Notes: generated by a model not told the origin, from the letters alone. A stretch of DNA of 62,503 bases from a virus (IMGVR_UViG_3300027834_000006:1-62503), one strand, 5' to 3'. Counted from the stretch's first letter, positions 2,811-44,760 are shown. Numbers and translations: made by a program.

Positions 2811-2814
2811 AGGA

Positions 2815-7179: not shown

Positions 7180-7290
7180 ATTGATTCCTCCAGAAAAACA
7201 CTATAGGGTATCAGTGCATGCTGACCGGATCGCACAAAGAATTTATTGCACGACCCGGTAGCATTTCCCGGTCAGGGGAGGGGATACACA

Positions 7291-8019: not shown

Positions 8020-8098
8020 TGTAAAAACCTCCCATATACGTTATGAGCAACCTTAGAGGGCCAGTGGGCCTGACCCCAGGAGGGCTGCAAGATTATTG

Positions 8099-9034: not shown

Positions 9035-9061
9035 TTCTATATTCCTCCAAAGAAAAGCGAA

Positions 9062-9805: not shown

Positions 9806-9974
9806 AATGCCCCCTTTTTTTTCGACCTATTGATTAGTGAAATTCATTGTCTGATTGAGTCGCGACTATCATAATGAATAACCTGTTAATCAATGTCATA
9901 AAAAAATCTGAATAGAATTGATGCTCCCTGTTATGGGGAGTCTCTTCTAAACGCTTGTTCATGTAATCACACAT

Positions 9975-10283: not shown

Positions 10284-10302
10284 AATGTATTCCCCTTACA
10301 TA

Positions 10303-14700: not shown

Positions 14701-14764
14701 TATATTCTCCCCATGTTGACCCTATGTCCTCCTCTTATGGTATTTTTTATGCAAACAATAGTTT

Positions 14765-30303: not shown

Positions 30304-30426
30304 TTGCCTGTCTTCTCCAGATAATGATCAACCAAAATATAAAATTCTAACCTGTCGGCAATAGCAGAATGTTGGCAAAAAACTTCAAATTTCATGAGTT
30401 TCTCCCCGGGAAAGTCAGTTTAACAA

Positions 30427-30455
30427 ATAATAACACACAATAAATAACATGTCAA
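30427..30455 (-). promoter_or_regulatory. sigma70 promoter upstream of primase
   Basis: TTGACA-17-TATTAT with TGn extension. Confidence 0.75.
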
Positions 30456-30461
30456 GAATAA

Positions 30462-31199
30462 TCACAAATAAAGAGGTACCCCGTTTGGACCAAATGAGGT
30501 GGCATCAATATGACTCATAACATAATCTTCTACGGTTATACGCCCCTCCAAATCCACTTTTTTAATCATGGCCTCGTTACCCCTATAGCTCATCCCCCAG
30601 TTATCACAAAGTAACTGGCCCACTCTATTTCGGAGTTCATCACTGATAATCCTGTGAAGTATAATATGATCCGCTACGTATTGGGCGGAAGAAGGGTTTT
30701 GTGAGTATTTACCTGTTATTTTCTTAACTTCTTTATAGGTGGGGCCATCAAACCATTTTATGCGGATACCTGTTCCCCAAAAACCATCACCGTATCTTGC
30801 CAGTAAAATAAAACCAATTCCCGGAAATTGGTCTTTTAATTCTCTTCCGATTTTCTCCTTTCCCAATATCAACTTATCTCCCGGGGGAGTTTTGTACAAG
30901 GCCTGTTCCGTCTCTTTAATGTCACACGATATCCCGTTCCTTAGTTTTGTAACTTCTGTTTGCAAGGAAGACATTAGTTTTATTATTTCAGAATGGGTAG
31001 ATTCGGGATCGATGCAGGAACTACAAAGCTCAGGGTATAGAGGGCAAGTCTGACAATAACTACGCAAGCCCTGGTTATACAACTTGCAATATCCACATCC
31101 TTCAATCATCATTTTGTCAACACGTTCAAGCTCCCTCGATATATCCCTCCATTTATCTGCTGTATCATTTTTTTGTTTTAAAAATTCATCATTATTCAT
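30462..31199 (-). CDS. fusion of Cys4 helical domain and LPD29-like domain
   Basis: CGYC..CQTCPLYPELC, then ELKDQFPGIGF...I.WFDGPT.KEVKKIT.KY; full-length paralog of 38680..39468. Confidence 0.8.
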   Translation of the reverse strand: MNNDEFLKQKNDTADKWRDISRELERVDKMMIEGCGYCKLYNQGLRSYCQTCPLYPELCSSCIDPESTHSEIIKLMSSLQTEVTKLRNGISCDIKETEQALYKTPPGDKLILGKEKIGRELKDQFPGIGFILLARYGDGFWGTGIRIKWFDGPTYKEVKKITGKYSQNPSSAQYVADHIILHRIISDELRNRVGQLLCDNWGMSYRGNEAMIKKVDLEGRITVEDYVMSHIDATSFGPNGVPLYL

Positions 31200-31226
31200 G
31201 TTTTTTCCCCTCCCCTTATAAGGTTA

Positions 31227-31415
31227 TCATATCAAATCCCAGAAATGCTCATCGACTGTTGCTGTATAATCGTAATTCAAATCCTCTGATTCCTCTATGA
31301 GAAGAGATGCGAATCGATGAATAATTTCTATTTGGGCATCAGTTACGTTGACAGTTTTCCCGGCAGTAATCTTAGCGCCTTTTTTACCGGTAACCATCGT
31401 TTCAGGCTTTTTCAT
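31227..31415 (-). CDS. hypothetical protein
   Basis: 62 aa with GAGG RBS. Confidence 0.5.
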   Translation of the reverse strand: MKKPETMVTGKKGAKITAGKTVNVTDAQIEIIHRFASLLIEESEDLNYDYTATVDEHFWDLI

Positions 31416-31425
31416 GATTCATTCC

Positions 31426-31635
31426 TCATTTTGCTCTTTCCTCCAAAGTTCTTCTTACCTGCTCCATCGCCCAATCAAGCTTATCTTCTGGCATAGCATC
31501 AACAGCTTCATTAATAGGTGTTTCCAACCTATGAAAGCAATACATTTGTTTAAATAGATGTTGCTGTTCTTTCGTACACTCAGCCAATCCTTCCTTCAGT
31601 TGCTTTCTCGCAAAATCCTGTAACTGATTGTTCAT
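31426..31635 (-). CDS. hypothetical phage protein
   Basis: Start MNNQLQ at 31635 after AGGAGG; FKQMY...VD.MPEDKLDWAM.QV. Confidence 0.65.
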   Translation of the reverse strand: MNNQLQDFARKQLKEGLAECTKEQQHLFKQMYCFHRLETPINEAVDAMPEDKLDWAMEQVRRTLEERAK

Positions 31636-31682
31636 GCTACTCCCTCCTAAATGATTTTCCAAATTCACCAAACTCAACAAAA

Positions 31683-31711
31683 ATACTAACACATGAGAGG
31701 GCTTGTGTCAA
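31683..31711 (-). promoter_or_regulatory. sigma70 promoter
   Basis: TTGACA-17-TAGTAT, TGn extension, upstream T tract. Confidence 0.75.
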
Positions 31712-31726
31712 GAAAAAAAATAATAT

Positions 31727-31918
31727 TCATGAGGTCTCGGGTTTGTATCCCGAGCAAAGATGAACTCCCAAAATCGTAAGAGTGCAATTTTGTTTTGAGT
31801 CATAATCTCTTGTGAATTCAGATATCTTGTTGTTTCTGGTAATTTCCCAATTCGTACACCTACCCTCTGTATTCCAGTAGCAATTATTTATACCCCCCTC
31901 TAATTCTATCCCATGCAT
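31727..31918 (-). CDS. small Cys-rich hypothetical protein
   Basis: Start MHGIEL after AGGAG; four Cys. Confidence 0.5.
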   Translation of the reverse strand: MHGIELEGGINNCYWNTEGRCTNWEITRNNKISEFTRDYDSKQNCTLTILGVHLCSGYKPETS

Positions 31919-31947
31919 TCTACTCTCTCCTAAGTAAGTTGTGCAGT

Positions 31948-32133
31948 CTACCAAAAATCAATACTGCAATAAACCGGTCCTATCCACAGGCTAAGCCCAA
32001 AATCATAGTGATAGCCCATGTCAAAGCCGAAGCCCCAACGGAGCAAGGTTATCTCAACCTGGATATGGTCTGATTCAAACTGCCAATGATACCAGGGTTT
32101 ATTGTGTGAAAAAGGTTTGAATGTATCAGTCAC
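31948..32133 (-). CDS. small aromatic-rich hypothetical protein
   Basis: GTG start after GGGAGGT. Confidence 0.45.
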   Translation of the reverse strand: MTDTFKPFSHNKPWYHWQFESDHIQVEITLLRWGFGFDMGYHYDFGLSLWIGPVYCSIDFW

Positions 32134-32162
32134 TCTACCTCCCAAGTAATTCTTTGAGCGCA

Positions 32163-32333
32163 TTAGTCTTTTACATAATCATCGGTCTGAAATGCACCGT
32201 CCCCCTCAAGAAGTTCCGCGCGGGATATGTCAACAATTACTTTGCTCTCTGGGGAGCAGTTTTCGTTCAACCATCTTATCAAAGGCCTGGCAGCCTCCTC
32301 AAATGTTATGTATTGATAGGTTTTAAAAATCAT
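32163..32333 (-). CDS. small phage protein, 56 aa (not in ORF track)
   Basis: MIFKTYQYITFEEAARPLIRWLNENCSPESKVIVDISRAELLEGDGAFQTDDYVKD; GGAGGAGG RBS. Confidence 0.7.
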   Translation of the reverse strand: MIFKTYQYITFEEAARPLIRWLNENCSPESKVIVDISRAELLEGDGAFQTDDYVKD

Positions 32334-32366
32334 GCGTACCTCCTCCGTGAATTAGTTTAGAAAAAG

Positions 32367-32395
32367 AGAGTAACATACAAAAGATCCCTTGTCAA
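32367..32395 (-). promoter_or_regulatory. sigma70 promoter
   Basis: TTGACA-17-TACTCT with TGn extension. Confidence 0.7.
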
Positions 32396-32778
32396 GAATA
32401 ATGTTTGGAGTATTTCGCAATCCACTCCTTCAATTCTATTATCTTTTTGTCTTCCGCTTGCATTTTGTTTCGTTTTTGCATGTGACCACAGGACACAAAT
32501 TTCCATACATGGTTTTTCTGACTTCCTCCCAACGATGACCGTATTCGAGATTTTTCTTTTTTTTCACTTTCGGCATCAACCAATCGAACAAGACAACCCA
32601 ACCTATGGTGCTTAAATTCACCAACCAAAGCAGTTTCCATCCATTCTACCAATGTTCGATCCTCAATGCAATATTGGACGCTCATCCATCTCCAAAGATT
32701 TTGTAAATCGTCAGCATTTTGTACTTCTCTAGCCTCCATGCCACCATCAACAGACTCAAAATATATAAAATTTTTCAT
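32392..32778 (-). CDS. hypothetical protein
   Basis: ATG after GGGGGA; downstream of the 32810-32838 promoter. Confidence 0.5.
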   Translation of the reverse strand: MKNFIYFESVDGGMEAREVQNADDLQNLWRWMSVQYCIEDRTLVEWMETALVGEFKHHRLGCLVRLVDAESEKKEKSRIRSSLGGSQKNHVWKFVSCGHMQKRNKMQAEDKKIIELKEWIAKYSKHYS

Positions 32779-32809
32779 CGGATATCCCCCAAGAAAGTTA
32801 TTTCAGCAA

Positions 32810-32838
32810 ATGGTAACACGTAAAGGATTTTATGTCAA
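32810..32838 (-). promoter_or_regulatory. sigma70 promoter
   Basis: TTGACA-17-TACCAT, TGn extension, upstream T tract. Confidence 0.75.
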
Positions 32839-32924
32839 GAAAAAAAATAATAATTTTTGTTTTTTCAGAATTTTCTGCAAGGTTAAATTTCGGAGAGTTG
32901 ATTTAATCCTCCCATTCCTGCACC

Positions 32925-33200
32925 TCAATGGCATTCGCACATCCCCCCATTGTAAGCGTATGGGCCATGGTATCCTTGTGGGTCTTCAGTGTTATAATGT
33001 TCTCCTGGAACGCCGTACCAATATCTGCCATTTCCACAACAATCACAAATCCGAACATCATAATCTTCTCCATGTTCTCTTATCCAGGTCAACACACCGG
33101 CCACAAAGTAATCCAATTTTTTTAATTTTATCATTACATCCTGCGGAATTTGATGTGTGTTTATAAACCCGGTTCCGTCACATCTAGTACATGTCTTCAT
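32925..33200 (-). CDS. DnaJ-like CxxCxGxG zinc-finger protein
   Basis: CTRCDGTG...CDCCGNG...CECH; start 33200 after GGGAGGT. Confidence 0.65.
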   Translation of the reverse strand: MKTCTRCDGTGFINTHQIPQDVMIKLKKLDYFVAGVLTWIREHGEDYDVRICDCCGNGRYWYGVPGEHYNTEDPQGYHGPYAYNGGMCECH

Positions 33201-33244
33201 ATATTTACCTCCCAAGTGATTCTCCAAATTTGTTAACTTAACAG

Positions 33245-33273
33245 ACGATAACATTCAGAAGGTTTCTTGTCAA
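33245..33273 (-). promoter_or_regulatory. sigma70 promoter
   Basis: TTGACA-17-TATCGT with TGn extension. Confidence 0.7.
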
Positions 33274-33531
33274 GAAGAAAATAATTTTTTTTGTTTTTTT
33301 GAGAATTTTACACCTGGGGACTATACCCCCCTTTTCTTATATATCAATACCAAAACCCCACGTGCCACCCCTCTCCACGCGCGCACATAACGCACACGCA
33401 CGCCTACACACACATATAACAACAACTAACAACTGACAAAAGACTCACAAGGTTTAGTCTTTTCACATAACAAACAACACTCATAAACTACAATACTAAC
33501 AAAAGACAAGGGTATACCCCTATTGTCCCTA

Positions 33532-33756
33532 TTGAGTACACTTGACCAAGGTCTAGCCATAGATACTTAATGTCTAAGTACTGAGTGCAAGATATTTAGC
33601 GTGGAATATCTAGCCCTCAGTCATAGCCATCAAGTACCAATGCCTACATATTTGGTATTAGATACCCAGCATCAACTACCGGGTGTCAAGTATGAACACC
33701 GAGTATTGAGTACTTAATGCAGGGGACTTAGTGCTTGTTACTGAGTACCAACTGAG
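33532..33756. repeat. degenerate heptamer array, about 30 units, consensus near YYRAGTA
   Basis: In-phase units ctaagta, ctgagtg, caagata, tttagcg, tcaagta, tttggta, ttagata, tcaacta, ccgggtg, tcaagta. Confidence 0.65.
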
Positions 33757-33989
33757 AAACCCTAACATTATCAGTCTTTTGGGAACAATGGAATATTGAG
33801 AGGTTCCGAGTGTCTCAGCATATTGTAAAAACGCTAAGGTGGCTTATAGCATCGACGATCAGAGGGCAAGGCATACGAATGTATCAGTTTTGTGCTTGCG
33901 TCTGTTAGAGGGCAAATAAGGGCTGTTAAATTGGATTTAAGGGTTTTTGTTGGGTTAGTCATGATAATAGTTACCTCCATAAAGTACTG

Positions 33990-34002
33990 TAAGTGTTTGA
34001 TA
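33990..34002 (-). promoter_or_regulatory. IHF-like binding site
   Basis: TATCAAACACTTA matches the WATCAANNNNTTR consensus. Confidence 0.45.
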
Positions 34003-34522
34003 TTGTTGAAGATTGTTCCCTTTATGGGTTAAAACGTAGGGACTATACATTTTCCCAAAACCCTCCTATTAGTTTTCAATACTGATGTTTTCTTAATTTC
34101 CTTCTTAACTTCTTACTTCTCTTTAACTACCTTACAAAAAAACATTCAAGTCTTAGTTTCTTTAACTTCTTCTTGCTTTCTCTTTAATAGCTTCTTATTT
34201 TCTTTAACTAAACACTTTCTATTATCTTCTTTTAATCCCTTCTTATTCCTTTATTTTCTCTTTACTGGTTTTTATATAACTTCTTTTTAATAAAATCTTT
34301 TGATAAGATCTTTTAATAATCTATTCTGTAAGGGTTTCTTAACAAGTCTTTACTTAGTAGTTTTTTAAAGACAAAAGAAGCCTGTAGGAGAATGAAAAGT
34401 ACTAAAAACATGTAAAGACTTGATAAAAAGATGAAGATCTTTTATTAAGGTTTCTTTATTATTCTTTCATTAAAGACTTTTATTATTCTTGTATAAAGAT
34501 CTTTATATTAATATCTTTTATT

Positions 34523-34551
34523 ATAGTACCTGACTGGGGGGATTTTGTCAA
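34523..34551 (-). promoter_or_regulatory. leftward sigma70 promoter, back-to-back with the rightward promoter
   Basis: TTGACA-17-TACTAT. Confidence 0.6.
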
Positions 34552-34604
34552 GGAGAAAAAAGCTTTTTATTTCGTTTTGCGTACCGGGCATTGAAGTTTT
34601 TTAC

Positions 34605-34633
34605 TTGACAAGAATAATCTTATTTGGTATAAT
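34605..34633 (+). promoter_or_regulatory. consensus sigma70 early promoter of the plus arm
   Basis: Perfect TTGACA-17-TATAAT with TGn extension and upstream T tract. Confidence 0.9.
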
Positions 34634-34684
34634 CTGATTATGTATCGTTGAGAAGTAAAAAAACTAATAAAAGGGAGAAAGAAA

Positions 34685-34969
34685 ATGACAAGATTAGAGT
34701 TAGGAACCCAAAATATTACTCAGGACCTGAAGAAGGCTTTCCCAGGATGTGACTTTACGGTTATTCCCACCATCTTAGATAGCCAAAAATCATTCATCGG
34801 TGTATATTGGATGCCAGGTCCATCCCTCAAAGCAGTTGACAAAGTAGTAGCTAAATATGCCCTAGGTGTTTGGAATGATAAGACTGAAGTTTATGATTAT
34901 AGTCCTGAAGCTATCGCCTTTGGTGATGAAAGGGGAGGAGCAACTTTTATCTGGACAAAGACAATATGA
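34685..34969 (+). CDS. LPD29-like domain protein, copy 1
   Basis: LKKAFPG.DF...V.WMPGPS...V.KVV.KY..G.W....E.YDY...GGA.FI. Confidence 0.75.
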   Translation: MTRLELGTQNITQDLKKAFPGCDFTVIPTILDSQKSFIGVYWMPGPSLKAVDKVVAKYALGVWNDKTEVYDYSPEAIAFGDERGGATFIWTKTI

Positions 34970-34997
34970 TAACTTAATTCAAGAAAGGGAGAAAAAA

Positions 34998-35306
34998 ATG
35001 AATAAAGAGGAAATCTTAAAAAACAAACTGCAATCACAAGAAAAGTGGAACGATGTATTGAAGGGCATCCACGCCCTGGAAAGTAATATTATCGACAAAG
35101 AAGGTTACTGTAGAATATATCAAGATTGCACGATAAGCAGAAAACACGAGTGCCACGATTGCCCTTTATATCAATGTGAAGCCTGTAGCCCTGAAGAAGA
35201 TGATAACTCACTCTATACACAGATCTTAATTGCACTTGATAAAATGGAGCGGCTTACTGCGGGCTTGCTAGAAGATATAAAAGACGATATCGCTGCAACC
35301 ATCTAA
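34998..35306 (+). CDS. Cys4 helical-hairpin protein, copy 1
   Basis: MNKEEILK.K...KW, GYC..CHDCPL....C, DNSLY, IKDDI; start 34998 after AAGGGAG. Confidence 0.75.
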   Translation: MNKEEILKNKLQSQEKWNDVLKGIHALESNIIDKEGYCRIYQDCTISRKHECHDCPLYQCEACSPEEDDNSLYTQILIALDKMERLTAGLLEDIKDDIAATI

Positions 35307-35333
35307 TGTAAACCAAAAAAAGAGAGGTGAAAC

Positions 35334-35786
35334 ATGAAAAGACAGATGAGAGATTACACGTTAGGAGCAAAGAATATAAGGAAAGAATTGAAGGCTGCGT
35401 TTCCCGCCATTAAGTTTTCTGTGCGCTCAAAAGGGTATGCTGGAGGTTGCAGCATCCATATAGATTGGATCGAAGGGCCAACCGAAGAAGCAGTAGAGAA
35501 GATAACCAACAAGTATGAGCAGGGATCTTTCGACGGGATGATAGATCTATACACATACGATACAGACAGAGAATTTACCGACAAAAACGGAGGAGCAAAA
35601 TATGTCTTTACTCATCGAAAATATAAAGCTGAAACCGAAGAAGCACTTGGTAGAAAACTTTGCAAAGAAAACGGCGTAGAGTATGACGGCGAAGAAACAA
35701 GGCATTTATGGGGATCACAAGACCCAAGACTTTTAAGGACTCATGTTTGGGAAGAGCTTAGCAAAACATCTTTTAACACCAACTAA
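35334..35786 (+). CDS. LPD29-like domain protein, copy 2
   Basis: AKNIRKELKAAFP.IKFSVRS..YAGG.SI.IDW.EGPT...V..IT.KY..GSFDGM.D.Y.Y. Confidence 0.85.
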   Translation: MKRQMRDYTLGAKNIRKELKAAFPAIKFSVRSKGYAGGCSIHIDWIEGPTEEAVEKITNKYEQGSFDGMIDLYTYDTDREFTDKNGGAKYVFTHRKYKAETEEALGRKLCKENGVEYDGEETRHLWGSQDPRLLRTHVWEELSKTSFNTN

Positions 35787-35817
35787 TAGCAATAACTTTA
35801 TGAAAAAGGGAGAAAAC

Positions 35818-36891
35818 ATGCATATAACTATTGAGCAAAAAACACTGAAAGACGCGCTAAAGAAAATTCAAGACTGTGTTAAAAAAGACAGGAACCTTGC
35901 CCTCACTTCACACGTATCAATCACAACAGGTGTTGACTCTGTGACCTTCTCCGCTACAAACCTGGACGTTTACCTTGATATGCAATGTAAGGCTGTTGTG
36001 GCTACTCATGGTTCTTGTGTTGTAGACAGAGAAGCACTTAAGGTTTTGACCAAACAGGCGACAAAAGAAACAATTACTATTTTCACAGAGAGAAACAATG
36101 AAATAGGGTTTCGCAAGGGAACTTTAAACACAACACTTGACGCACATGACCCGCTTCCTGTTGCTCCAGCCGAAGGCGCCCTCCCTTTTAGTTCCATTAA
36201 TGCCAAAAACCTGGCCGAAATGATAAAAAACACATCTTATGCGGTGTCCACTGATGAAGATCGAGCAGATGTAATGTGCGTTTACCTGGAAAGTCAAAAC
36301 CAAGGAATGAGTATGGTAGCAACAGACGGGCACCGCCTGTCCTTCATGAGGCTAGAAGATAAAATAGATTCATTTTCTTCTATTCTTATCTCCAAAAAAA
36401 GCACAGACGCACTGTATAAACTACTTAAAAAATGCCCTCAAAACCTGGTAATGATGGGTGCTAGCGATGAAACACTAGTAATTAAAAGCGATACTGAAAT
36501 TATGTCAATAAGAATTCAAGGGGATATTTTCCCTGATTATAAGAAAATAATTCCCAAAAACAATGACATAAGAATTGAGGTTAATGCAGCCACTTTAAAA
36601 GAAGCAATTCTTTCTTGTCCCTTCTCTAAAAAGAATTATATTCTTGGCCTGGAAATAACAAAAGACAAGATTACAATTACCGGAACGAACACACCCCTTG
36701 ATATTGCCACGCTAAACCCCATAAGTGAAGACATCAGCATAAACCTTAATTATAAATATCTGCTCGATGTTTTGGCGACAATCGACGGAACGATGGTTGA
36801 ATTGGCTTTCTTGGATTCCGCCTCTTCCGTTCTAATAACAGAACCGGGAAATTATTGCAAGCTGGCCCTGATAATGCCAATACAAACTTGA
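35818..36891 (+). CDS. dnaN: DNA polymerase III beta sliding clamp
   Basis: SATNLD, YAVSTDE.R, MVATDGHRLS, G.FPDY..IIP, N..YLLD.L and LIMP; start 35818. Confidence 0.9.
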   Translation: MHITIEQKTLKDALKKIQDCVKKDRNLALTSHVSITTGVDSVTFSATNLDVYLDMQCKAVVATHGSCVVDREALKVLTKQATKETITIFTERNNEIGFRKGTLNTTLDAHDPLPVAPAEGALPFSSINAKNLAEMIKNTSYAVSTDEDRADVMCVYLESQNQGMSMVATDGHRLSFMRLEDKIDSFSSILISKKSTDALYKLLKKCPQNLVMMGASDETLVIKSDTEIMSIRIQGDIFPDYKKIIPKNNDIRIEVNAATLKEAILSCPFSKKNYILGLEITKDKITITGTNTPLDIATLNPISEDISINLNYKYLLDVLATIDGTMVELAFLDSASSVLITEPGNYCKLALIMPIQT

Positions 36892-36916
36892 TGTAAACCA
36901 AATAAGGGGGATAAAC

Positions 36917-37015
36917 ATGAGTTACAAGGAAATTTGGCTCACAGCGCTTACGGCAATCGGTATAACGGCAATTGTTATTACCTTAATGGCTATAGCTGAA
37001 AGAATAGGTTTCTGA
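36917..37015 (+). CDS. 32-aa single-TM peptide (not in ORF track)
   Basis: MSYKEIWLTALTAIGITAIVITLMAIAERIGF; AAGGGGG RBS. Confidence 0.55.
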   Translation: MSYKEIWLTALTAIGITAIVITLMAIAERIGF

Positions 37016-37053
37016 AAGCAAAAAAAACAAACCAAAAAAAAGGAGAACGTATC

Positions 37054-37287
37054 ATGGAAAGAGACAATGATTGGAATGTGAAAGCCGATGCATTTCTTAA
37101 GGTGCTTGAAAATATTAGAGTGAGCGTGCGACTTTATCAAGAAGGAGAACCGAGGAAACAGGCAGAAACCCATATCAAAAAACTTTTAGCTTGCAATAAT
37201 CTTCCTGATTATCATTCTGGGCTTATTATGCGAGCTGTAGATTCTTGCATATTTGACATCATTCATGTTATAGAGTATGATAGATAA
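37054..37287 (+). CDS. hypothetical protein
   Basis: AAGGAG RBS; 77 aa. Confidence 0.6.
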   Translation: MERDNDWNVKADAFLKVLENIRVSVRLYQEGEPRKQAETHIKKLLACNNLPDYHSGLIMRAVDSCIFDIIHVIEYDR

Positions 37288-37335
37288 ATCCAGGTCAAAC
37301 CTTGACATTTATAAAGGCAAAAAAAGGAGAATACA

Positions 37336-37584
37336 ATGAGAGTGAGAGAATTTGAGGCCATGATCGAGAGAAGAAGTGGCTTTTGTTTTCTATACCTGGC
37401 AGCTCATGGCGAAAAGGGAAAAGCTTGCGATAATTGCCCTCTGCATAAAAATGGAGCGTGTAGCGTATACTATGAAGATAATTCACTTTTTACGCAAGTC
37501 CGAAATGCACGCGCAAAAATGGAACGATTAACAAAACAATTATGGCAAAAAATAGAAAAAGCAATCGAGAACCCAACCAAATAA
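37336..37584 (+). CDS. Cys4 helical-hairpin protein, copy 2 (N-terminally shortened)
   Basis: GFC..CDNCPL....C..EDNSLF. Confidence 0.7.
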   Translation: MRVREFEAMIERRSGFCFLYLAAHGEKGKACDNCPLHKNGACSVYYEDNSLFTQVRNARAKMERLTKQLWQKIEKAIENPTK

Positions 37585-37598
37585 AAGGAAGGTGTGAA

Positions 37599-38051
37599 AT
37601 GAAAAGAGAACTGAGTGAACAGGCGCTAGGAGCAAAGAACATCAGGAAAGAGTTGAAGGCTGCGTTTCCGGGCATTAAGTTTTCTGTATGTTCAGAGTCG
37701 TTTGCAGGCGGGAACGCTATTGAGGTAGACTGGACCGACGGACCCACAAGAACGGAAGTGGAGAGAATAACGGCTAAGTACAAACATGGGAATTTTGACG
37801 GAATGACCGATTCTTATACGTACAAGCCGGACAGTGCCGAGAGTGCCGAGAGAGGCGGCGCCATGTATGTGCAAATACAACGGCATTACAGCGCTGAGAC
37901 AATGGAGAAGCAAGGCAGAGAACTTTGCCGTAAACAGAAGATAGAATACGAAGGGAACGCCACCAGATATCTTTACGGCCCATCAGACTGCGACCGTCTA
38001 TCTGTTCACGTTTACAGAGAACTTGCGAAAAAATCTTTTAAGACTAACTGA
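37599..38051 (+). CDS. LPD29-like domain protein, copy 3
   Basis: LGAKNIRKELKAAFPGIKFSV...VDWTDGPT; nucleotide-level similarity to copy 2; start 37599. Confidence 0.85.
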   Translation: MKRELSEQALGAKNIRKELKAAFPGIKFSVCSESFAGGNAIEVDWTDGPTRTEVERITAKYKHGNFDGMTDSYTYKPDSAESAERGGAMYVQIQRHYSAETMEKQGRELCRKQKIEYEGNATRYLYGPSDCDRLSVHVYRELAKKSFKTN

Positions 38052-38065
38052 AAGGGAGGGAAAAG

Positions 38066-38374
38066 ATGGACAAAAAAGAGATCTTAAGAATGAAACAAGG
38101 AACAAAAGTGAAATGGGATGGTATTGCAAGAAAACTACGTCTTATTGAGAAAGACATCGCTACTTGCTGCGGTTATTGTATGGCATATAAAAAAGAATCT
38201 TTAACTAAAAAACATCCCTGTTGTCATTGCCCACTATATAAAAGTAGATCTTGTAGCGCGAAAGTGGAAGACAATTCCGTTTTCACTCAAGCTCTGAATA
38301 CGATTAAAAAGTTAGAAGGTTTTACGAAAATAATCCAGAAAGATATAAAAGACGATATCTCCGCAACTATCTAA
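38066..38374 (+). CDS. Cys4 helical-hairpin protein, copy 3
   Basis: CGYC..CCHCPLY...C..EDNSVF; ends IKDDISATI, like copy 1. Confidence 0.75.
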   Translation: MDKKEILRMKQGTKVKWDGIARKLRLIEKDIATCCGYCMAYKKESLTKKHPCCHCPLYKSRSCSAKVEDNSVFTQALNTIKKLEGFTKIIQKDIKDDISATI

Positions 38375-38397
38375 TAAACAAAAAAAGGAGAACGACC

Positions 38398-39468
38398 ATG
38401 GAAACATTAACAAAAGAAAATGCTCCACGGGTGGATACAATAAAATTAAAATGTTTTCCTTTTTTTATTGCAAGAAAGTTTAATTACAAAAAGCACCACT
38501 TTAGCAATGATGCTTTTGTGAGTTCATATGAAGGCCCAGGATATAGAATGGGCCTTCGAGAAAATAATTATCACTTATGGACTGTTGCATCTTGGAAAAA
38601 GGGAGGAAAAGCCATGGATACAATATTAGGCTATGAAGATATTAAGGTAGATCGAATAATATTTAAAAAGAGGAGAACCATGAATAAAAACGAGATTTTA
38701 AAACAGAAGATTGAATCAGCGGAGAATTGGGACAAGAGGTTACTTGAGCTTGAGCGTCTCGGTAATAAAATGGGTGAAAAATGCGGGTATTGCAACTTAT
38801 ACAGAAAAAGTGCTGCTAATTATCATCCTGATTGCCGCTGTTCTGACTGCCCTTTATATCCAAAGCTTTGCAGTATGAAGAAAGAAACCCCCTCTACTTA
38901 TACTAAGATATGGGAATTAATGGAGGCCTTACAGGAGGAATGCTCTGAATTAAAAGACGGAATCGAAAAAGACATTGAGCATACAAGGGAAACCCTCAAA
39001 GAAGAGAAGCCCTTGGACAACTTAGCCCTGGCAGTAGAAAACCTTATTAAAGAGTTAGGGGAGGCGTTTCCGGGGATCAAATTTATTTTGAGATCAAAAA
39101 AACATGAAGCTCCCTGGGGGTGTGCCATTCACGTAAGGTGGATTGATGGACCTACCAAAAAAGAAGTAAAAAAAATAACCGATAAATACGAACGCAAGAA
39201 CCACCTCGGTGGCGTTCTCCCTAATGGTGTGGTAACTTATGTTGCAAGCCGGAGAATTCATAGCCATAAAACCAAAACCAGGATAGGGCAAATCCTCTGT
39301 GATTCGTTTTCGATGAAATACAGGGGAAACGAGGGCAGCCACGTATACGGGCAGCCGGGGTGTAAAACTATTGATGACTATGTCAAAAAAAACATCCGAG
39401 ATACTTCATTTGATTCAAAAGGCAATATATTGCACATAGATCAAGATCCCACGTATCTTGAACGATAA
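38398..39468 (+). CDS. multidomain ORF: unknown N-terminus, Cys4 domain, LPD29-like domain
   Basis: In-frame internal RBS+ATG at 38614 and 38680; from 38680 it is a full paralog of 30462..31199. Confidence 0.8.
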   Translation: METLTKENAPRVDTIKLKCFPFFIARKFNYKKHHFSNDAFVSSYEGPGYRMGLRENNYHLWTVASWKKGGKAMDTILGYEDIKVDRIIFKKRRTMNKNEILKQKIESAENWDKRLLELERLGNKMGEKCGYCNLYRKSAANYHPDCRCSDCPLYPKLCSMKKETPSTYTKIWELMEALQEECSELKDGIEKDIEHTRETLKEEKPLDNLALAVENLIKELGEAFPGIKFILRSKKHEAPWGCAIHVRWIDGPTKKEVKKITDKYERKNHLGGVLPNGVVTYVASRRIHSHKTKTRIGQILCDSFSMKYRGNEGSHVYGQPGCKTIDDYVKKNIRDTSFDSKGNILHIDQDPTYLER

Positions 39469-39493
39469 CTTTATAAAAAGGGAGGGGCGACCC

Positions 39494-39787
39494 GTGGGAA
39501 AAGAATACATCTTGAAAAAGAAAAAGAAAGCAGAAACAAAATGGAAAAGCATATTGAGGAAAACCCAAGCATTAAAACGCCAATTATATAGCCGCTGCGG
39601 TTACTGTGAATTGAGCACCACTTGTGCCGATTGTCCATTGAGCGGGAATGTGTGTGGACCGCGCAAGGGCATGACGGATTCACTCTATGGCAATATTGCA
39701 TATAGAATTAGAGAGCTCGAACATGACGTGGAAAGTTTCAATCTTGCCATTAAAAGAGATATCAAAAAAACTAACGACTCTAAATAA
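39494..39787 (+). CDS. Cys4 helical-hairpin protein
   Basis: GTG after GGGAGG; CGYC..CADCPL...C..DSLY..IKRDI. Confidence 0.75.
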   Translation: MGKEYILKKKKKAETKWKSILRKTQALKRQLYSRCGYCELSTTCADCPLSGNVCGPRKGMTDSLYGNIAYRIRELEHDVESFNLAIKRDIKKTNDSK

Positions 39788-39804
39788 AGGGGGAGATTGC
39801 AATC

Positions 39805-40092
39805 ATGAATGAAAAAGAGATCATGGCAAAGAAAAATGAGTCAAAGAAAAGGTGGAGTAATATAAAGGAATCTACCTTCGACTTACTGATAAGGGCAAAA
39901 GCCCCCTGTGGCTACTGTAATATATTTGAAGATCTCTGTAGTGAGTGCCCCCTCGATGGTAAAATATGCTCTTCCGACAACTCTCTTCACGGTAAAGCAG
40001 TAAGTGCATTAAAAACAGCCTATGAAAACGCTTTAGCCCTGCGCGATGCGATAGTGAAAGACATTGAGCAAAGCAAATTAAGGGGAAGTTAA
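39805..40092 (+). CDS. Cys4 helical-hairpin protein
   Basis: CGYC..CSECPL...C..DNSL..IVKDI. Confidence 0.75.
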   Translation: MNEKEIMAKKNESKKRWSNIKESTFDLLIRAKAPCGYCNIFEDLCSECPLDGKICSSDNSLHGKAVSALKTAYENALALRDAIVKDIEQSKLRGS

Positions 40093-40151
40093 AAAGATAG
40101 CCTACCTGGAGGGCCAAGTCCAGGAACTTTCTCTCTTTTTCCCTGGCTTAT

Positions 40152-40183
40152 CGGGGTCGCAGGGTAAGAACCGACCCCGTTTT
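40152..40183 (+). terminator. Rho-independent terminator ending the paralog array
   Basis: Stem cggggtcg/cgaccccg followed by TTTT. Confidence 0.6.
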
Positions 40184-40206
40184 AAACTTTATAATATGAG
40201 GGAAAA

Positions 40207-40368
40207 ATGGAACAAGATATTAAAAAATGTGACTGCGGAAAAGTGGCTACCGGACGATATTATTATCCATATTTAGGAGGCTTATGGAAATATCAATGCG
40301 CAAAGTGCGCTGCTGGGTTTCAAGCATTTGAACCGCTACCGGATTTTAAAGGGGGTGGCTATGAATAA
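40207..40368 (+). CDS. 53-aa zinc-ribbon protein (not in ORF track)
   Basis: MEQDIKKCDCGK...QCAKCA; GAGGG RBS. Confidence 0.55.
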   Translation: MEQDIKKCDCGKVATGRYYYPYLGGLWKYQCAKCAAGFQAFEPLPDFKGGGYE

Positions 40369-40642
40369 TTTTAAAACCCAGTTTGAATTATTCGGGAAGA
40401 TTGCGCCTGGGTGGAAGATGATTCGTCCCCTAGAGATAACAATAGAACAAGACGACAATGAAGATCATATGGCAAACGATGATGAATTTTGCGTTTATGG
40501 TTACGGAAACACACAACTTCTCGCGCTACGAGATTATGCTACATCACTGATTGAATATTACCAACTTATCGAAAAACATATGGCTTTTTCGACACAAGCA
40601 ATATTTGTTTCTTTGAAATCATACATTAACCGCATTCAATAA
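40361..40642 (+). CDS. HicB-like antitoxin domain protein (orphan)
   Basis: PLEITIEQDD...A....F.VYGYG.T...AL.DY...LIEYY resembles the HicB N-terminal fold. Confidence 0.55.
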   Translation: MNNFKTQFELFGKIAPGWKMIRPLEITIEQDDNEDHMANDDEFCVYGYGNTQLLALRDYATSLIEYYQLIEKHMAFSTQAIFVSLKSYINRIQ

Positions 40643-40664
40643 AGATTCCGAAGGAGCCGCGACA

Positions 40665-40913
40665 ATGGAGACCCTATATATATGTTTTAAAGAATGCATG
40701 TCTTTACGGGGATACCAGTTCGTATGCGTGTTGTTATTATGGATAGTAGTTTTTTTGTGGGTATTCGGTGCGCTTTATTCTATAGCAGAAGAGATTACGC
40801 TATTCATGAATGAGTCTATTACGGAAATACTTGATGACACGCAAAAGAAGCAGGCAAACAAGCTTTTTGTGATTTTTATCTTGTGTCTATGTGTGTTTTT
40901 GTCTTTTTTTTAG
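40665..40913 (+). CDS. small two-TM membrane protein
   Basis: Two hydrophobic segments; AAGGAG RBS. Confidence 0.55.
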   Translation: METLYICFKECMSLRGYQFVCVLLLWIVVFLWVFGALYSIAEEITLFMNESITEILDDTQKKQANKLFVIFILCLCVFLSFF

Positions 40914-40925
40914 TTCTGGTTTTTT

Positions 40926-41141
40926 ATGAGGTACAACATGAAACCCGGATCTTTGATTCTTTTGGTTTTGTTGATTTTCTCATTCGTTGTCATTTGCTGT
41001 TTAAACCGTGATCTTCACAGAGTAAAAAACATGCTTGAACGCCAAAACGAACTCAGCAGACAAATGGTTGAGATGACACAGAACAAAACATTGATTCTTT
41101 TGGAGGGAACAATAGATGAAAGAAAAGAATTTTCAGAGTGA
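40926..41141 (+). CDS. small membrane-anchored coiled-coil protein
   Basis: N-terminal TM helix followed by a coiled coil. Confidence 0.5.
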   Translation: MRYNMKPGSLILLVLLIFSFVVICCLNRDLHRVKNMLERQNELSRQMVEMTQNKTLILLEGTIDERKEFSE

Positions 41142-41655
41142 GTTCAAGAAAAACAACAAGATACATGGCGTGTTTGAACTGAAGCTTTGCAAGGGTGTTT
41201 CTCTGCCGTTCTCTTCCGTAAAACCGCATCAGGAAAAGGCCCTGCTGGCCGCAACTACTATGGAGGGCTTGTATTACAAGATCCCCGATCAGCCCGTTTC
41301 TGAAATGGAAGAAGATGCCCCGAAGGAAAACGAAAACAACAAGCAAAAGGGAAAGAAAATACGATTCACCCTGCCGAAACCGTTCGACTGTTTTCTGGTT
41401 AAGAATACTCCCGCATACGTTGTCATAATGTTTTATGTTCCTCGAAAGAAAAAAACGGTGTATTATATCCCTATCGGGGATTTTCTTGAAATGAAAAACT
41501 CAGTGACACGAAAATCAATGACCGAAGAAATGTTGGGCAAATATGCCACATCGATTCAATCATGGTTGAAGGGATGCAGGACTTTTACGGTGGGCGAAAA
41601 TCAAAGAGACTGTTCGATAATAGGGGACTGGTTTGGACAACCGAAAAAAAAATAA
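41116..41655 (+). CDS. RecU-like PD-(D/E)XK Holliday junction resolvase
   Basis: E..FQ..F, FELK....SLPFS.V.PHQ..AL and YKIPD...KPFDC. Confidence 0.6.
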   Translation: MKEKNFQSEFKKNNKIHGVFELKLCKGVSLPFSSVKPHQEKALLAATTMEGLYYKIPDQPVSEMEEDAPKENENNKQKGKKIRFTLPKPFDCFLVKNTPAYVVIMFYVPRKKKTVYYIPIGDFLEMKNSVTRKSMTEEMLGKYATSIQSWLKGCRTFTVGENQRDCSIIGDWFGQPKKK

Positions 41656-42112
41656 ATGTGTTGACAAAGAAAACATTTATGATATAATGGTTTCAGAATC
41701 CATTGAGTTGATGGACCATGGGAATTGCCTGAAGGCACTCTGCCCGTTTCATGATGACACGAACCCTTCCATGGCGGTATATCCCCAGAAAAATCGTTGG
41801 TGGTGTTTTGTATGCCAGGAGGGGGGAGATAGCATAGATTTTATAATGAGATACAAGAAGATGAACTTTGTGAGGGCATGTGATTATTTGGGTGTTTACA
41901 AAACCTCCGCACATAAGAAAAATGACAAAAAAAACGTATTGGATCTGGCCGTTTGCAGGAATGAGAAGGATAGGAACGTGATCAATAAGTTACTGAAGGA
42001 TGAGTTCGAGCAAATTATCGCAGACGGAGACAATTACAGGGTTAACGTGAAGTTTACATCCGACAATAAAATAATGGTTTTCCGGGTTATGTCCCGGAGT
42101 CAAACAGAATGA
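41633..42112 (+). CDS. stand-alone CHC2 primase zinc-binding domain protein (start uncertain)
   Basis: LCPFHDDTNPSM.V......W.CF.C..GGDSIDFI......F..A...L. Confidence 0.85.
   Translation: MDNRKKNKCVDKENIYDIMVSESIELMDHGNCLKALCPFHDDTNPSMAVYPQKNRWWCFVCQEGGDSIDFIMRYKKMNFVRACDYLGVYKTSAHKKNDKKNVLDLAVCRNEKDRNVINKLLKDEFEQIIADGDNYRVNVKFTSDNKIMVFRVMSRSQTE
41661..41688 (+). promoter_or_regulatory. sigma70 promoter
   Basis: TTGACA-16-TATAAT with TGn extension and upstream A tract. Confidence 0.7.
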
Positions 42113-42324
42113 AGTTTTGGTGGAGGGAGGTGGAAAACGTGTATTCTTATAACGATTTTGAATGTCTGAATTGTGGGACCAGGTGGGATGCCGTGTGGAA
42201 TTGCAATGACGGACCGCCTCCATGCCTGAAATGCGGTGGAGAATCAAAGAAGATCCTGAGCGTTACTTCATGGAGGCTCGGCAAGTTTGATACCAAAACG
42301 ACACATAAAATAAGTAAAGATTGA
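42109..42324 (+). CDS. FmdB-like zinc-ribbon protein
   Basis: DFECLNCG...CLKCGG..KKILS. Confidence 0.65.
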   Translation: MKFWWREVENVYSYNDFECLNCGTRWDAVWNCNDGPPPCLKCGGESKKILSVTSWRLGKFDTKTTHKISKD

Positions 42325-42342
42325 AACAAAAGGGGGTTCACA

Positions 42343-42435
42343 ATGAAATCAGGGACAAAAAGGGTTGCAGCGTTTGTAGCTTGGGTGGTTATTGTGATAC
42401 TGGGGGTATTTTTGGTGAGATGGTTGTTTTGCTAA
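42343..42435 (+). CDS. 30-aa single-TM peptide (not in ORF track)
   Basis: MKSGTKRVAAFVAWVVIVILGVFLVRWLFC; AGGGGG RBS. Confidence 0.5.
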   Translation: MKSGTKRVAAFVAWVVIVILGVFLVRWLFC

Positions 42436-42461
42436 TCACTGAAGAAAGGAGGGCATACAAA

Positions 42462-42728
42462 ATGAAAGGGGCCATTGTTTTACGGCGGCTGACTTATGTG
42501 ATGAGGAGTTATGCAAGATCAAGCCTGGTAAAAAAACTTTTTTCAACAATGTTTTTTGGCCGTGTTTCGTTGGTACTTGGGGCATTTGGTGTATTGATTA
42601 TTTTTATTGGGCGACTGACTGGCGTGATCGCGGACGGTGACGGGGCTGTATGCGGTTTGATAGTGGCAATTGGAACTAGTGTGGGGATAGCGGTGGAGGG
42701 TTATATCGATGATATTAGAGAAGAATAA
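42462..42728 (+). CDS. two-TM membrane protein with LRRLTYVMRSYA leader, copy 1
   Basis: AAGGAGG RBS at about 42446-42452; ATG 42462. Confidence 0.65.
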   Translation: MKGAIVLRRLTYVMRSYARSSLVKKLFSTMFFGRVSLVLGAFGVLIIFIGRLTGVIADGDGAVCGLIVAIGTSVGIAVEGYIDDIREE

Positions 42729-42790
42729 GAAGAAGAAAAAGAAACAGATTTATGGGCATAACTTGTTAAAACCAGTAAAAGGAGGTAACG

Positions 42791-43480
42791 ATGGGTATTT
42801 TTTCACGGTTGTTTGAAATAGGTGAAGCAAAGGTCAACAGTGTGATTGATGTACTTGAAAGGCCAGAGTTGATGTTGGAACAAGCCATTCGAGATAAAGA
42901 GAAACAGATTAAAAGTGTCAAGCAGTCCGTACAGTCGTGCATAACAACCGAAAGACAGACCAAGGCCCTTCTTGACAGAGAAAAGTCAGATAAGATAACT
43001 TGGGATAAAAAGGCTAAAACCGCTCTTGATGCAGGCGATGAAGACCTTGCGTTTAGATCTCTTGCGAGAGCTGCCGAACACGAAAAAAATGCTCAGACCC
43101 TTGAGGTTAACTGGCAGTCCCAGCGTTCAAGCGTCGATGCCCTGAAACAGGATATCTTTGAGTTAGAGGATGGACTTGCTATGTTTAAGCGTAACAAGCA
43201 TTTTATTGTAGCACAGAGTAAGACCTCGGATGTAAAGAAGGAACTTTACGAGGCAAAGGCGAGAATACAAAAGAAAAGCAGTGGCGATGATCTTATGAAG
43301 CGGATGATGGTTAAGGCGCAGAGATCGGCATTTGGGGCTGATGCGGCGAAGGAAATGGCCGACACCTTTGAAGGCGGAGACAGGCTGGGGAAAGAGATTG
43401 AAGTACTGGAGGATGCTTCCGCGAACGCCGAAACCCAAAGGAAGTTAACAGCATTAAAAGAAGAACTGGGAAAGAGGTAA
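42791..43480 (+). CDS. pspA: PspA/IM30 (Vipp1, ESCRT-III superfamily) protein
   Basis: MGIFSRL..I..AKVN...D.LE.PE.MLEQAIRD, W..KA..AL..GDEDLA..L, and C-terminal L..LK. Confidence 0.9.
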   Translation: MGIFSRLFEIGEAKVNSVIDVLERPELMLEQAIRDKEKQIKSVKQSVQSCITTERQTKALLDREKSDKITWDKKAKTALDAGDEDLAFRSLARAAEHEKNAQTLEVNWQSQRSSVDALKQDIFELEDGLAMFKRNKHFIVAQSKTSDVKKELYEAKARIQKKSSGDDLMKRMMVKAQRSAFGADAAKEMADTFEGGDRLGKEIEVLEDASANAETQRKLTALKEELGKR

Positions 43481-43507
43481 CCCCATGAATGTGCGAGGGC
43501 ATACAAC

Positions 43508-43684
43508 ATGAAAGAGGACCTTGTTTTACGGCGGCTGACTTACGTGATGAGGAGTTATGCCACGGCCATTTGTGGTATGATTTCTGGGAAAGTAAAGGCA
43601 ATAAGATGGAGAGACGGACCTGGGTTTTTTGTGTTCTGGATTGTTTCTTGGGGAGGGGCATATTTGTTGAGCCTCCTCCGGTAG
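43508..43684 (+). pseudogene. leader-family copy 2, probably a frameshifted paralog of 43727..44176
   Basis: MKEDLVLRRLTYVMRSYATAICGMISGKVK...; another frame ends VALKTEL*, matching LALKAEL in copy 3. Confidence 0.5.
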
Positions 43685-43726
43685 CACTTAAGACCGAACT
43701 ATAACAAATGACGGAGGGCATCCAAA

Positions 43727-44176
43727 ATGGAAGAAGAGCTTGCCTTGAGGCGCCTGGCTTGCGTGATAAGAAGTTATGCCACGGCCATTTGTGGTATGAT
43801 TTCTGGGAAAGTGAAAAAATTGAGCGAAGTGAGATCAGGCGTGATATCGGGAATTGTAATTTGGTTGTGCATTGTTGTTTTTGTGTGGGGTTTCTTGCGG
43901 TTGAAGATTTCCCCCTATACCGCGTTAGCGCTCAAGGCCGAACTAAACAGCGAGTTCCCTGGGGTTGAGTTCTCGATTGAACGTAACAGATGGCATTCCG
44001 TGATTGTTGACTGGACCGACGGACCCGAAAACAATCAGGTAACTCCAATAGTGAGGGGATACGCGTGCGGGCAGACAATTCGTTATACTTCGACTGAGGA
44101 ATCAGGCAAAGAGGGGGTCTGTCTCAATGTATTTCATGAAGCCTGGCCTTGTCCAATGATGAGAAGAGGTTCATAA
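43727..44176 (+). CDS. leader plus TM helix plus LPD29-like domain
   Basis: LRRLACVIRSYA leader, one TM, then LKAELNSEFPGVEFSI....VIVDWTDGP....V..IV.GY. Confidence 0.7.
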   Translation: MEEELALRRLACVIRSYATAICGMISGKVKKLSEVRSGVISGIVIWLCIVVFVWGFLRLKISPYTALALKAELNSEFPGVEFSIERNRWHSVIVDWTDGPENNQVTPIVRGYACGQTIRYTSTEESGKEGVCLNVFHEAWPCPMMRRGS

Positions 44177-44739
44177 TGAAAAACCAAAATAAGATAAAGA
44201 AAATATTGGCTGATTCAAGAGCCGCTAGCGATGAACTGAATAGGGTTTTGTCTCTAGGCGTCGTCAAGATAACCACTGAGCTGGATCATGACGTAATCCC
44301 CTGGAATCCTGATATTTCCAGGGTTTTTGACTATTGGCAGAAGGCGGGTATAATCAAGCATCGGACCATAGAAAAGGTTGAGTCAAAAATCAGAGCTGCA
44401 CTGAAAGTATATCCGGTCGATGAGATTACGGAAGCAATCGACAATTACAAAAAAGTTCTTGACTCTAATGAACATTTCTTCAATTATAGATGGGGACTGG
44501 GCGATTTTCTGGTTAGGGGACTGGAAAAATTTCATACCGAAAATGATCCATTCAGTAATTATTCGGCATTTCCAGGCAAAAATAAGATCCAAACGAATAC
44601 GACCACCGAGAGTGATAGTTCTGCTTCTCCAGAATTCAAGGAAAAATGGGCAAACTGGAAAAAATCCACTCCAGATGAACGAAAAATCCTGGAAATGGAA
44701 TGGAGAAAGAAGCTTGAGCGAGACGTTGAAAGCAATTAG
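44176..44739 (+). CDS. putative replication initiator / helicase-loader-like protein
   Basis: VFDYW...I...LK.Y..DEI.EAIDNY resembles phage replisome organizer C-termini; directly before the helicase. Confidence 0.5.
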   Translation: MKNQNKIKKILADSRAASDELNRVLSLGVVKITTELDHDVIPWNPDISRVFDYWQKAGIIKHRTIEKVESKIRAALKVYPVDEITEAIDNYKKVLDSNEHFFNYRWGLGDFLVRGLEKFHTENDPFSNYSAFPGKNKIQTNTTTESDSSASPEFKEKWANWKKSTPDERKILEMEWRKKLERDVESN

Positions 44740-44760
44740 CGAAAGAGCCAGGGAGACTTT

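Follow-up and report, generated by a model that had tools for sequence, protein, structure and literature searches.

The early region of an uncultivated phage genome (IMGVR_UViG_3300027834_000006; the window, that is, the whole 62,503 bp stretch that was analyzed) carries a set of small paralogous genes that join a known domain, LPD29, with a previously undescribed domain, referred to here as family B. Six LPD29 copies (family A) and seven family B copies are interleaved on two divergent arms around a probable origin of replication, and two of the genes encode both domains in a single protein. This interleaved pairing of B and LPD29 was seen only in one phage clade. The array is tentatively read as a group of early-made, host-directed proteins that may act in anti-defense or host takeover, and that would bind host factors rather than catalyze a reaction; we hold this reading with somewhat less than even confidence. 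An earlier note, made from the sequence alone, had proposed that A and B act together as such a system under accordion-like selection. The layout that it described was recovered, its pairing of A and B is kept for this clade, and its accordion is not.

Family A is LPD29

LPD29 (Pfam PF18847; gathering cut-off 27 bits) is described in Pfam as having a conserved acidic residue followed by a G-P motif and a mixed alpha and beta fold. All six family A open reading frames (ORFs) score above the cut-off, at 32.1-87.3 bits, and a six-frame search of the whole record with PF18847 returned the same six places and none further. Both the six copies named by the earlier note and their proposed identity, which was to be checked against the Pfam model, are therefore upheld (6/6 ORFs). 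Each copy also matches phrog_15549. The copies have the motifs ELK..FP..F and W.[DE]GP in common, and the W, G, and P are invariant in all six, with the residue before G-P being D in four, E in A2, and P in A1. By these profile matches, family A is LPD29. Four copies stand outside the two fusions:

34685-34969, plus strand: A1, short LPD29 protein of 94 aa, PF18847 32.1 bits, with a ribosome-binding site
35334-35786, plus strand: A2, full-length LPD29 protein of 150 aa, PF18847 87.3 bits, 87% identical to its orthologue in the relative G001
37599-38051, plus strand: A3, full-length LPD29 protein of 150 aa, PF18847 79.6 bits
43727-44176, plus strand: A6, sixth LPD29 copy, with an N-terminal hydrophobic, membrane-anchor-like segment, PF18847 40.4 bits at residues 64-117

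The AlphaFold2 model of A2 (pLDDT 89.1) has helices at residues 7-22, 51-61, 99-112, and 134-144 together with five strands. Foldseek found no informative match for this model in the PDB (best E 0.2), and a search of LPD29 against PDB sequences returned chance-level rows only (best E 0.094). LPD29 was defined in polyvalent proteins, but the family A products are not polyvalent proteins themselves; they are 94-356 aa in length and have a single LPD29 domain each, two of them also with B.

Family B is an unnamed Cys4 helical domain

The seven family B stretches are 31-40% identical to one another, with 32-40% identity to the first copy, and align around an invariant G-x-C, a C-x2-C-P-L, and a fourth Cys. 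A profile built from these same seven copies finds exactly seven places in the record (E 3e-29 to 4e-41). Since the profile was made from them, the informative result is the absence of an eighth copy. Both the seven copies and the four invariant Cys agree with what was reported before. Two of the copies lie within the fusions, and five stand alone:

34998-35306, plus strand: B1, Cys4 helical-hairpin protein of 102 aa, profile E 3.9e-41, AlphaFold2 pLDDT 87.7
37336-37584, plus strand: B2, short copy of 82 aa lacking the start of helix 1, profile positions 19-102, E 3e-29
38066-38374, plus strand: B3, Cys4 helical-hairpin protein of 102 aa, profile E 1.7e-39, 85% identical to its G001 orthologue
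39494-39787, plus strand: B5, Cys4 helical-hairpin protein of 97 aa with a GTG start and a ribosome-binding site, profile E 4.6e-33 (match from 39497)
39805-40092, plus strand: B6, Cys4 helical-hairpin protein of 95 aa, profile E 1.1e-30

The profile match for B2 begins at 37327/37336, and approximately the first 20 residues of the domain are absent. The B1 model, generated from a ten-row alignment, has helices at residues 3-32 and 72-101, with the four Cys in the connecting loop. As modeled, family B consists of a pair of long antiparallel helices with a Cys4 loop between them (G-Y/F-C ... C-x2-C-P-L ... C). The four cysteines most likely clamp a structural zinc ion.

No family B protein reaches any cut-off in Pfam, PHROGs, or NCBIfam, and the profile has no match among PDB sequences at E up to 1, in line with the earlier description of B as uncharacterized. 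Foldseek returned nothing for the B model at E<=0.001; the best PDB match was CT398 (4ilo, E 0.93) and the best BFVD match had E 0.44. A wide VIA-align search gave generic helical hairpins only. The helices of B superpose on antiparallel hairpins such as designed proteins, SMC coiled-coil arms, and CHMP4B (Z 8.7-10.5, rmsd 1.2-4.3 A, 58-92 of 102 residues), but the match list is flat and stays below the tool's bar of ~Z 13 for helical proteins. The ESM Atlas clusters closest to it consist of unnamed hypothetical proteins from viruses (scores 0.90-0.91). Family B is a real domain family of the Cys4 helical type, without a name in Pfam, PHROGs, or NCBIfam.

Two named candidates were rejected. 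B is not LPD30 (PF18850), for which neither the whole record (E up to 1) nor 10 B proteins (E up to 10) gave a match. B is also not a named Pfam zinc finger (FYVE, zf-C4pol, or others); FYVE came closest, with 17.8 bits against a cut-off of 27.8 in one of 10 members, and no family matched more than two of the 10.

A Cys4 site on a long helical hairpin brings to mind a small zinc-finger regulator that acts on DNA or RNA polymerase in an early-to-middle transcription switch, with LPD29 as an unrelated passenger. Small metal-finger coiled-coil proteins of the DksA/TraR type bind RNA polymerase and are found on mobile elements. Of the seven products with a B domain, four stand-alone proteins and the right-arm fusion are basic (pI 8.3-9.6), and a promoter box repeated five times on the minus arm would give them something to regulate. 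However, B1 is acidic (pI 4.7) and the left-arm fusion is near neutral (pI 6.4). The DksA/TraR family is absent from the Pfam matches of 10 B proteins at E up to 10 and from the fold lists, and neither it nor any Pfam zinc finger is found at cut-off. In our reading of the model, the topology of B also differs from the DksA/TraR type in that the Cys site is at the hairpin tip. Seven paralogues are many for a regulator, and the fusion to LPD29 argues that the two domains act jointly in this clade. A regulator is an improbable explanation.

Array order, fusions, and the origin region

On the plus arm the genes follow the order A1, B1, A2, sliding clamp, B2, A3, B3, (BA) fusion, B5, B6. The alternation and the B-A fusions on both arms are as the earlier note described them, with the clamp between A2 and B2. 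Its gene descriptions gave the right copies and places but omitted the 94-aa extension of one fusion, the truncation of B2, and the hydrophobic segment of A6. The fusions and the other elements of the array region are:

30462-31199, minus strand: left-arm B-LPD29 fusion of 245 aa, with B at residues 1-98 (30903-31199) and LPD29 at 33.5 bits
33255-34684, no strand: non-coding divergent region between the early arms, without any ORF of >=50 aa
34605-34633, plus strand: sigma-70-type promoter-like site, TTGACA-17 nt-TATAAT with a TG extension, 12/12 consensus matches
35818-36891, plus strand: sliding clamp (DnaN-like), interleaved in the array and belonging to neither family, phrog_947 E 1.7e-48
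38398-39468, plus strand: right-arm fusion of 356 aa, composed of a 94-aa N-terminal extension, B (residues 95-197), and LPD29 (residues 213-269, 45.8 bits)

The start of the clamp gene at 35818 was inferred from a ribosome-binding site. For the right-arm fusion, an internal start at 38680 would yield a 262-aa B-LPD29 protein. Ribosome-binding sites are found at both 38398 and 38680, and the extension between them (38398-38679) is in frame, has no stop, and has no Pfam match. The two sites thus indicate either two nested products or one three-part protein. The left-arm fusion lies directly upstream of the gene for the primase catalytic domain (29356-30303). Complex prediction for A and B scored 0.15 and 0.12, below the mark of 0.32; no verdict was given by the tool, and the result is counted neither for nor against binding.

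Because AT-rich tandem repeats (34090-34523) and a switch in the sign of the GC skew near 34000 fall within it, the non-coding region at 33255-34684 is probably the origin and early control or promoter region. The 12/12 promoter-like site, a match to the consensus only, stands ~50 nt upstream of A1, and the 15 kb scanned contain one other 12/12 site. This agrees with the strong promoter placed ahead of the array in the earlier note. A further promoter-like site, with 11/12 matches, is found at 37253-37281, ahead of B2. All of the A and B genes have a GGAG-type ribosome-binding site upstream, and they follow the promoter-like sites in close packing.

On the minus arm, a TTGACA promoter box with shared flanks occurs five times, at ~30422, 31681, 32362, 32805, and 33240 (repeat families D3 and D4; span 30422-33280). 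One copy of this box sits between the left-arm fusion and the primase gene.

Fusion history in the phage clade

G001, a 45-kb complete relative, has seven B genes, of which two are partial or weak. Its LPD29 genes number three, and one of these falls just below the cut-off at 26.6 bits. G001 has a single B-LPD29 fusion, which runs across the ends of the record, and a clamp-like fragment and the resolvase gene are interspersed in its array as well. On a 13.5-kb metagenome contig (L137), eight B and four LPD29 hits were counted; two fusions, one on each strand, are among them. L138 carries a fusion fragment. Between the window and G001, over the 27 of G001's 45 kb that were compared (1-11829 and 30000-45089), the early genes share 48-87% protein identity and the sole match in the structural region is 38% identical. 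This suggests that the early module has been exchanged, or conserved, apart from the rest of the genome.

In the trees, every B half of a fusion falls into a single clade (support 90/88), and the LPD29 halves likewise group together (91/89), as expected of a single fusion event followed by duplication. This points to one B gene having fused to one LPD29 gene in the ancestor of the clade, with a later duplication that placed the fusion on each arm around the probable origin. Since the same interleaved, fused layout recurs in G001 and L137, a functional link between A and B is reasonable within this phage clade.

Age and selection of the paralogues

The earlier note had read the array as an accordion. 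Gene accordions are recent, nearly identical tandem copies, and poxvirus K3L amplification and the host-takeover module of Bacillus phage SPO1 are known accordion or multi-copy early gene sets. The array resembles these in having many small paralogues behind strong early promoters and a copy number that varies among relatives. However, the LPD29 copies are 25-55% and the B copies 31-40% identical to one another, and the longest nucleotide repeat among the A or B genes is 60 nt at 88% identity. Three of the window's B copies have counterparts in G001 (branch support 93/90 to 100/99), so that the duplications are older than the split between the phages.

Pairwise dN/dS between the window and G001 is 0.16 for A2, 0.42 for B3, 0.24 for the fusion, and 0.56 for B6, against 0.27 for the resolvase used as comparator; these are crude two-sequence estimates, and dS of the fusion is saturated. 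The dN/dS comparison that the earlier note had proposed, made here among orthologues, thus indicates purifying selection. By these estimates, the genes are real and under purifying selection, and the divergence of the paralogues together with these dN/dS values rules out a recent accordion. The difference in copy number among relatives indicates that the genes are gained and lost, but slowly.

The same evidence bears on whether the array is the neutral product of repeated duplication of small dispensable genes, without a collective function. Copy numbers do vary, with seven B and six A in the window, seven B and three A in G001, and at least eight B and four A in L137, and decayed copies exist in the form of the two partial or weak B genes of G001 and the shortened B2 of the window. 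Against this, dN/dS is below 1 in all five pairs measured, the four Cys are invariant across copies that are 31-40% identical, every gene has a ribosome-binding site, and orthologous pairs have been retained between diverged phages. A neutral origin is therefore highly improbable.

LPD29 outside the clade

Iyer et al. 2017 (PMC5512222) defined LPD29, which they link with LPD30, in polyvalent proteins from phages and conjugative elements. LPD29 is not among the seven LPDs that they deem probably enzymatic, and they note that solo LPDs may aid the early phases of invasion. A 2026 study places four LPD29 genes in aca4 (anti-CRISPR-associated) operons and suggests an anti-defense role. The main text of a 2024 Nature paper on plasmid leading regions has no mention of DUF4942, DUF3560, polyvalent proteins, or LPD.

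A tblastn search with one LPD29 query found 417 places in 401 plasmid records, 230 of them conjugative, across many replicon types; none of these plasmid records matched B. On a MOBF plasmid, LPD29 stands beside RadC, DUF3560, a DNA methylase, a YeeU antitoxin, an antirestriction protein, and an SLT transglycosylase. In cellular genomes, LPD29 was found in 56 loci (875 kb in total, from many phyla) and is single-copy in 54 of them. Its neighbors there include DUF4942 (4), SLT (4), DNA methylases, TraM, KfrA, and ArdA. B is absent from all 56 cellular loci with both a narrow and a broad B profile, both of which detected the positive controls, and from all four named LPD29 phages. In Aphanizomenon phage CL131 (L011, 758-5785), genes for a MoxR-like ATPase, a VWA protein, and the DnaN clamp come after the LPD29 gene. 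Outside this clade, LPD29 belongs to the establishment regions of plasmids and integrative elements, and of a few phages, and is usually present as a single copy.

On plasmids (pS121-2, L144 5410-7451, and other hits), LPD29 is often annotated inside or directly beside DUF3560 proteins, and DUF3560 also makes up two of the 150 neighboring ORFs in the cellular loci. DUF3560 is possibly a general partner of LPD29.

The window copies agree with the LPD29 of Iyer et al. 2017 (PMC5512222) in passing the Pfam cut-off, in their motifs, and in their early-region location on a mobile element, the position that the paper assigns to solo LPDs. They differ in number, with six in one genome against the single copy of 54 of the 56 cellular loci, and in size, the window products being small (94-356 aa) next to polyvalent LPD29 proteins. 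They also differ in that two are fused to a domain not reported with LPD29 and in that LPD30 is absent. The domain order of the fusions has a parallel in LPD30-LPD29 proteins (P0176, PF18850 + PF18847, is an example) and other proteins of ~236 aa composed of an N-terminal beta-rich domain, a linker, and LPD29. In all of these LPD29 is C-terminal, behind another module. In the window, however, the N-terminal module is a Cys4 helical hairpin without any LPD30 signal.

Family B across viruses

The B profile was searched against 1.84 billion cluster representatives and found 153 at E<=0.001 and 20 at E<=1e-10, corresponding to about 150 clusters at 50% identity. Domain architecture was counted in 152 B proteins, five of which are window products. 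Most are stand-alone proteins of ~100 aa (124). Extensions of >=60 aa are N-terminal in 13, C-terminal in 10, and present at both ends in one; the other four proteins are intermediate. All 152 have at least four Cys within the domain. LPD29 is present in only three of the 152, two of which are the window's own, and the Pfam search found it in only one of the 30 longer B proteins from outside the window.

An unnamed N-terminal domain is common to eleven B proteins. It is found in G002 (L015), an unrelated 100-kb viral contig that is 78% complete and encodes three proteins with this domain followed by B (184, 229, and 315 aa), without LPD29. As in the window, B is multi-copy in G002 and fused to a second small domain, but the partner there is a domain with G-[SD]-x-V-x-V ... 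NRNPW placed before B rather than LPD29 placed after it. The three proteins and a neighboring 136-aa ORF lie at 4558-5112, 12773-13462, 13540-14487, and 14517-14927 in G002, and one of the three proteins has the N-terminal domain twice. The 136-aa ORF has a Cys-rich motif of another kind, C-G-L-C ... C-x2-C-G-L, and was missed by the B profile. In a small and rough test, the N-terminal domains of B fusions were compared with those of LPD29 proteins, and hhalign gave a probability of 0.1 in all three comparisons, that is, no sign of kinship.

Five further viral records, found by a motif pattern, have one B gene each and no LPD29; one of these records is complete, and L051 and L068 carry the same protein. 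B therefore occurs without LPD29 in all six of the B-bearing viral records analyzed from outside the clade. A replication protein O gene (L034) and a 5'-3' exonuclease gene (G002) are found at a distance of ~2 kb or less from stand-alone B genes, and other B neighborhoods contain TROVE/VWA, JAB, and SLOG genes. No B was found in 50,697 phage records by tblastn with B3, P0129, and P0020, nor in 72,556 plasmids by tblastn with B3, single-sequence searches of this kind being less sensitive than the profile.

The joint action of A and B proposed by the earlier note thus holds up as a reasonable view within the clade, on the evidence of G001, L137, and the one fusion event. It does not extend further: B and LPD29 never occur together outside the clade, which excludes a general A-B partnership. 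The earlier note had named, as grounds against itself, that B is a known domain and that it occurs independently of A; B does occur independently, but it is not a known domain.

A possible role in replication

The window's replication and recombination module is divided between the two divergent arms and comprises the sliding clamp, resolvase, split primase, DnaB, exonuclease, and RecT. A and B could be accessory factors of this machinery, such as clamp- or primase-associated adaptors or origin-organizing proteins, and not be directed at the host at all. The array flanks the probable origin and is interleaved with the clamp gene; resolvase, the primase zinc-binding domain, DnaB, exonuclease, and RecT follow, and the left-arm fusion abuts the primase catalytic gene. 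The G001 array is mixed with similar genes, the LPD29 gene of CL131 is found three genes upstream of DnaN and so gives another example of LPD29 near a clamp gene, and the protein O and exonuclease genes near stand-alone B fit the same role. On plasmids, however, LPD29 sits with antirestriction, methylase, and RadC genes rather than replication genes, and its presence in 401 plasmid records of many replicon types does not favor a replication factor. The TROVE/VWA, JAB, and SLOG genes in other B neighborhoods also speak against it, and replication accessory proteins do not usually come in six to eight diverged copies. A replication role for A and B is rather unlikely, though it is the main rival of the host-directed reading.

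The primase itself is apparently split. Its zinc-binding N-terminal part (41633-42112, plus strand) and its catalytic part (29356-30303, minus strand) match positions 18-117 and 113-401 of phrog_6444 and lie on opposite strands, 11 kb apart.

A proposed host-directed role

The host-directed reading is preferred because of the company that LPD29 keeps in conjugative plasmid and cellular loci, together with the proposals of Iyer et al. 2017 and the 2026 study. An anti-defense or host-takeover role is plausible from this context. In such a scheme, the array would be expressed at once after DNA entry, from the consensus sigma-70-type promoters. Family B would be a self-sufficient, metal-stabilized binding module that is able to act alone, and in this clade B and LPD29 would act on the same target or in one complex. 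The proteins may bind host factors, either defense proteins or host machinery, and the diverged copies would then cover different targets.

Several points weigh against this scheme. Neither fold has an informative match to a solved structure, which makes the choice of binding over catalysis a guess. The genes lie inside the replication and recombination module, and this position fits a replication role equally well. Only a small minority of the 150 ORFs neighboring LPD29 match mobile-element families, with a single ArdA among them. Many B copies have five to seven Cys, and the sequence does not separate zinc from an iron-sulfur cluster. The case for early expression is drawn from promoter-like sites, and B and LPD29 have no joint occurrence outside the clade. 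Some explanation other than those considered here is also unlikely, but less so than a transcriptional regulator.

A broader possibility is that B represents a new class of phage-borne, metal-clamped hairpin inhibitors or adaptors that act against host factors, with interchangeable second domains and with arrays that widen the range of targets. The second domains of B are LPD29 in this clade, the unnamed N-terminal domain in at least 11 other representatives, and other C-terminal domains elsewhere, and arrays of three to eight diverged copies are found in some phages. We consider this idea rather unlikely as it stands. If true, the B-LPD29 fusion would be the first experimental handle on how LPD29 acts. 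LPD29 is widespread on mobile elements, and this clade offers a natural fusion partner and diverged paralogues for joint screening. Family B is compact and confidently modeled, and it has been repeatedly fused and multiplied in uncultivated phages. Should either family bind a defense or replication protein, hundreds of hypothetical genes would be annotated; should neither do so, A and B only lengthen the list of phage early-region domains whose function is unknown.

Other features of the record

The window is a complete virus record by CheckV (100%) in the direct terminal repeats class, with a terminal repeat of 127 bp. The genes for the terminase, portal protein, ribonucleotide reductase, and internal virion protein are all on the minus strand. 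A megablast search of the window DNA against the phage collection gave no match, the scan of the region found no tRNA genes, and no Rfam families were found within 30000-45000.

Three more small Cys-rich ORFs with CxxC pairs are present on the early arms, at 32925-33254 (minus strand), 40207-40368 (plus strand), and 42109-42324 (plus strand); they are unrelated to family B. Between 42321 and 44176 lies a group of small hydrophobic ORFs that includes a PspA/IM30-like protein at 42791-43480 (TIGR02977, E 7e-17, far under the cut-off of that model). These ORFs have a 109-nt repeat in common (family D1), found three times at 42442, 43488, and 43707 with 67-83% identity. The third copy of this repeat is the N-terminal hydrophobic segment of A6, which indicates a locally recent duplication there, unlike the rest of the array.

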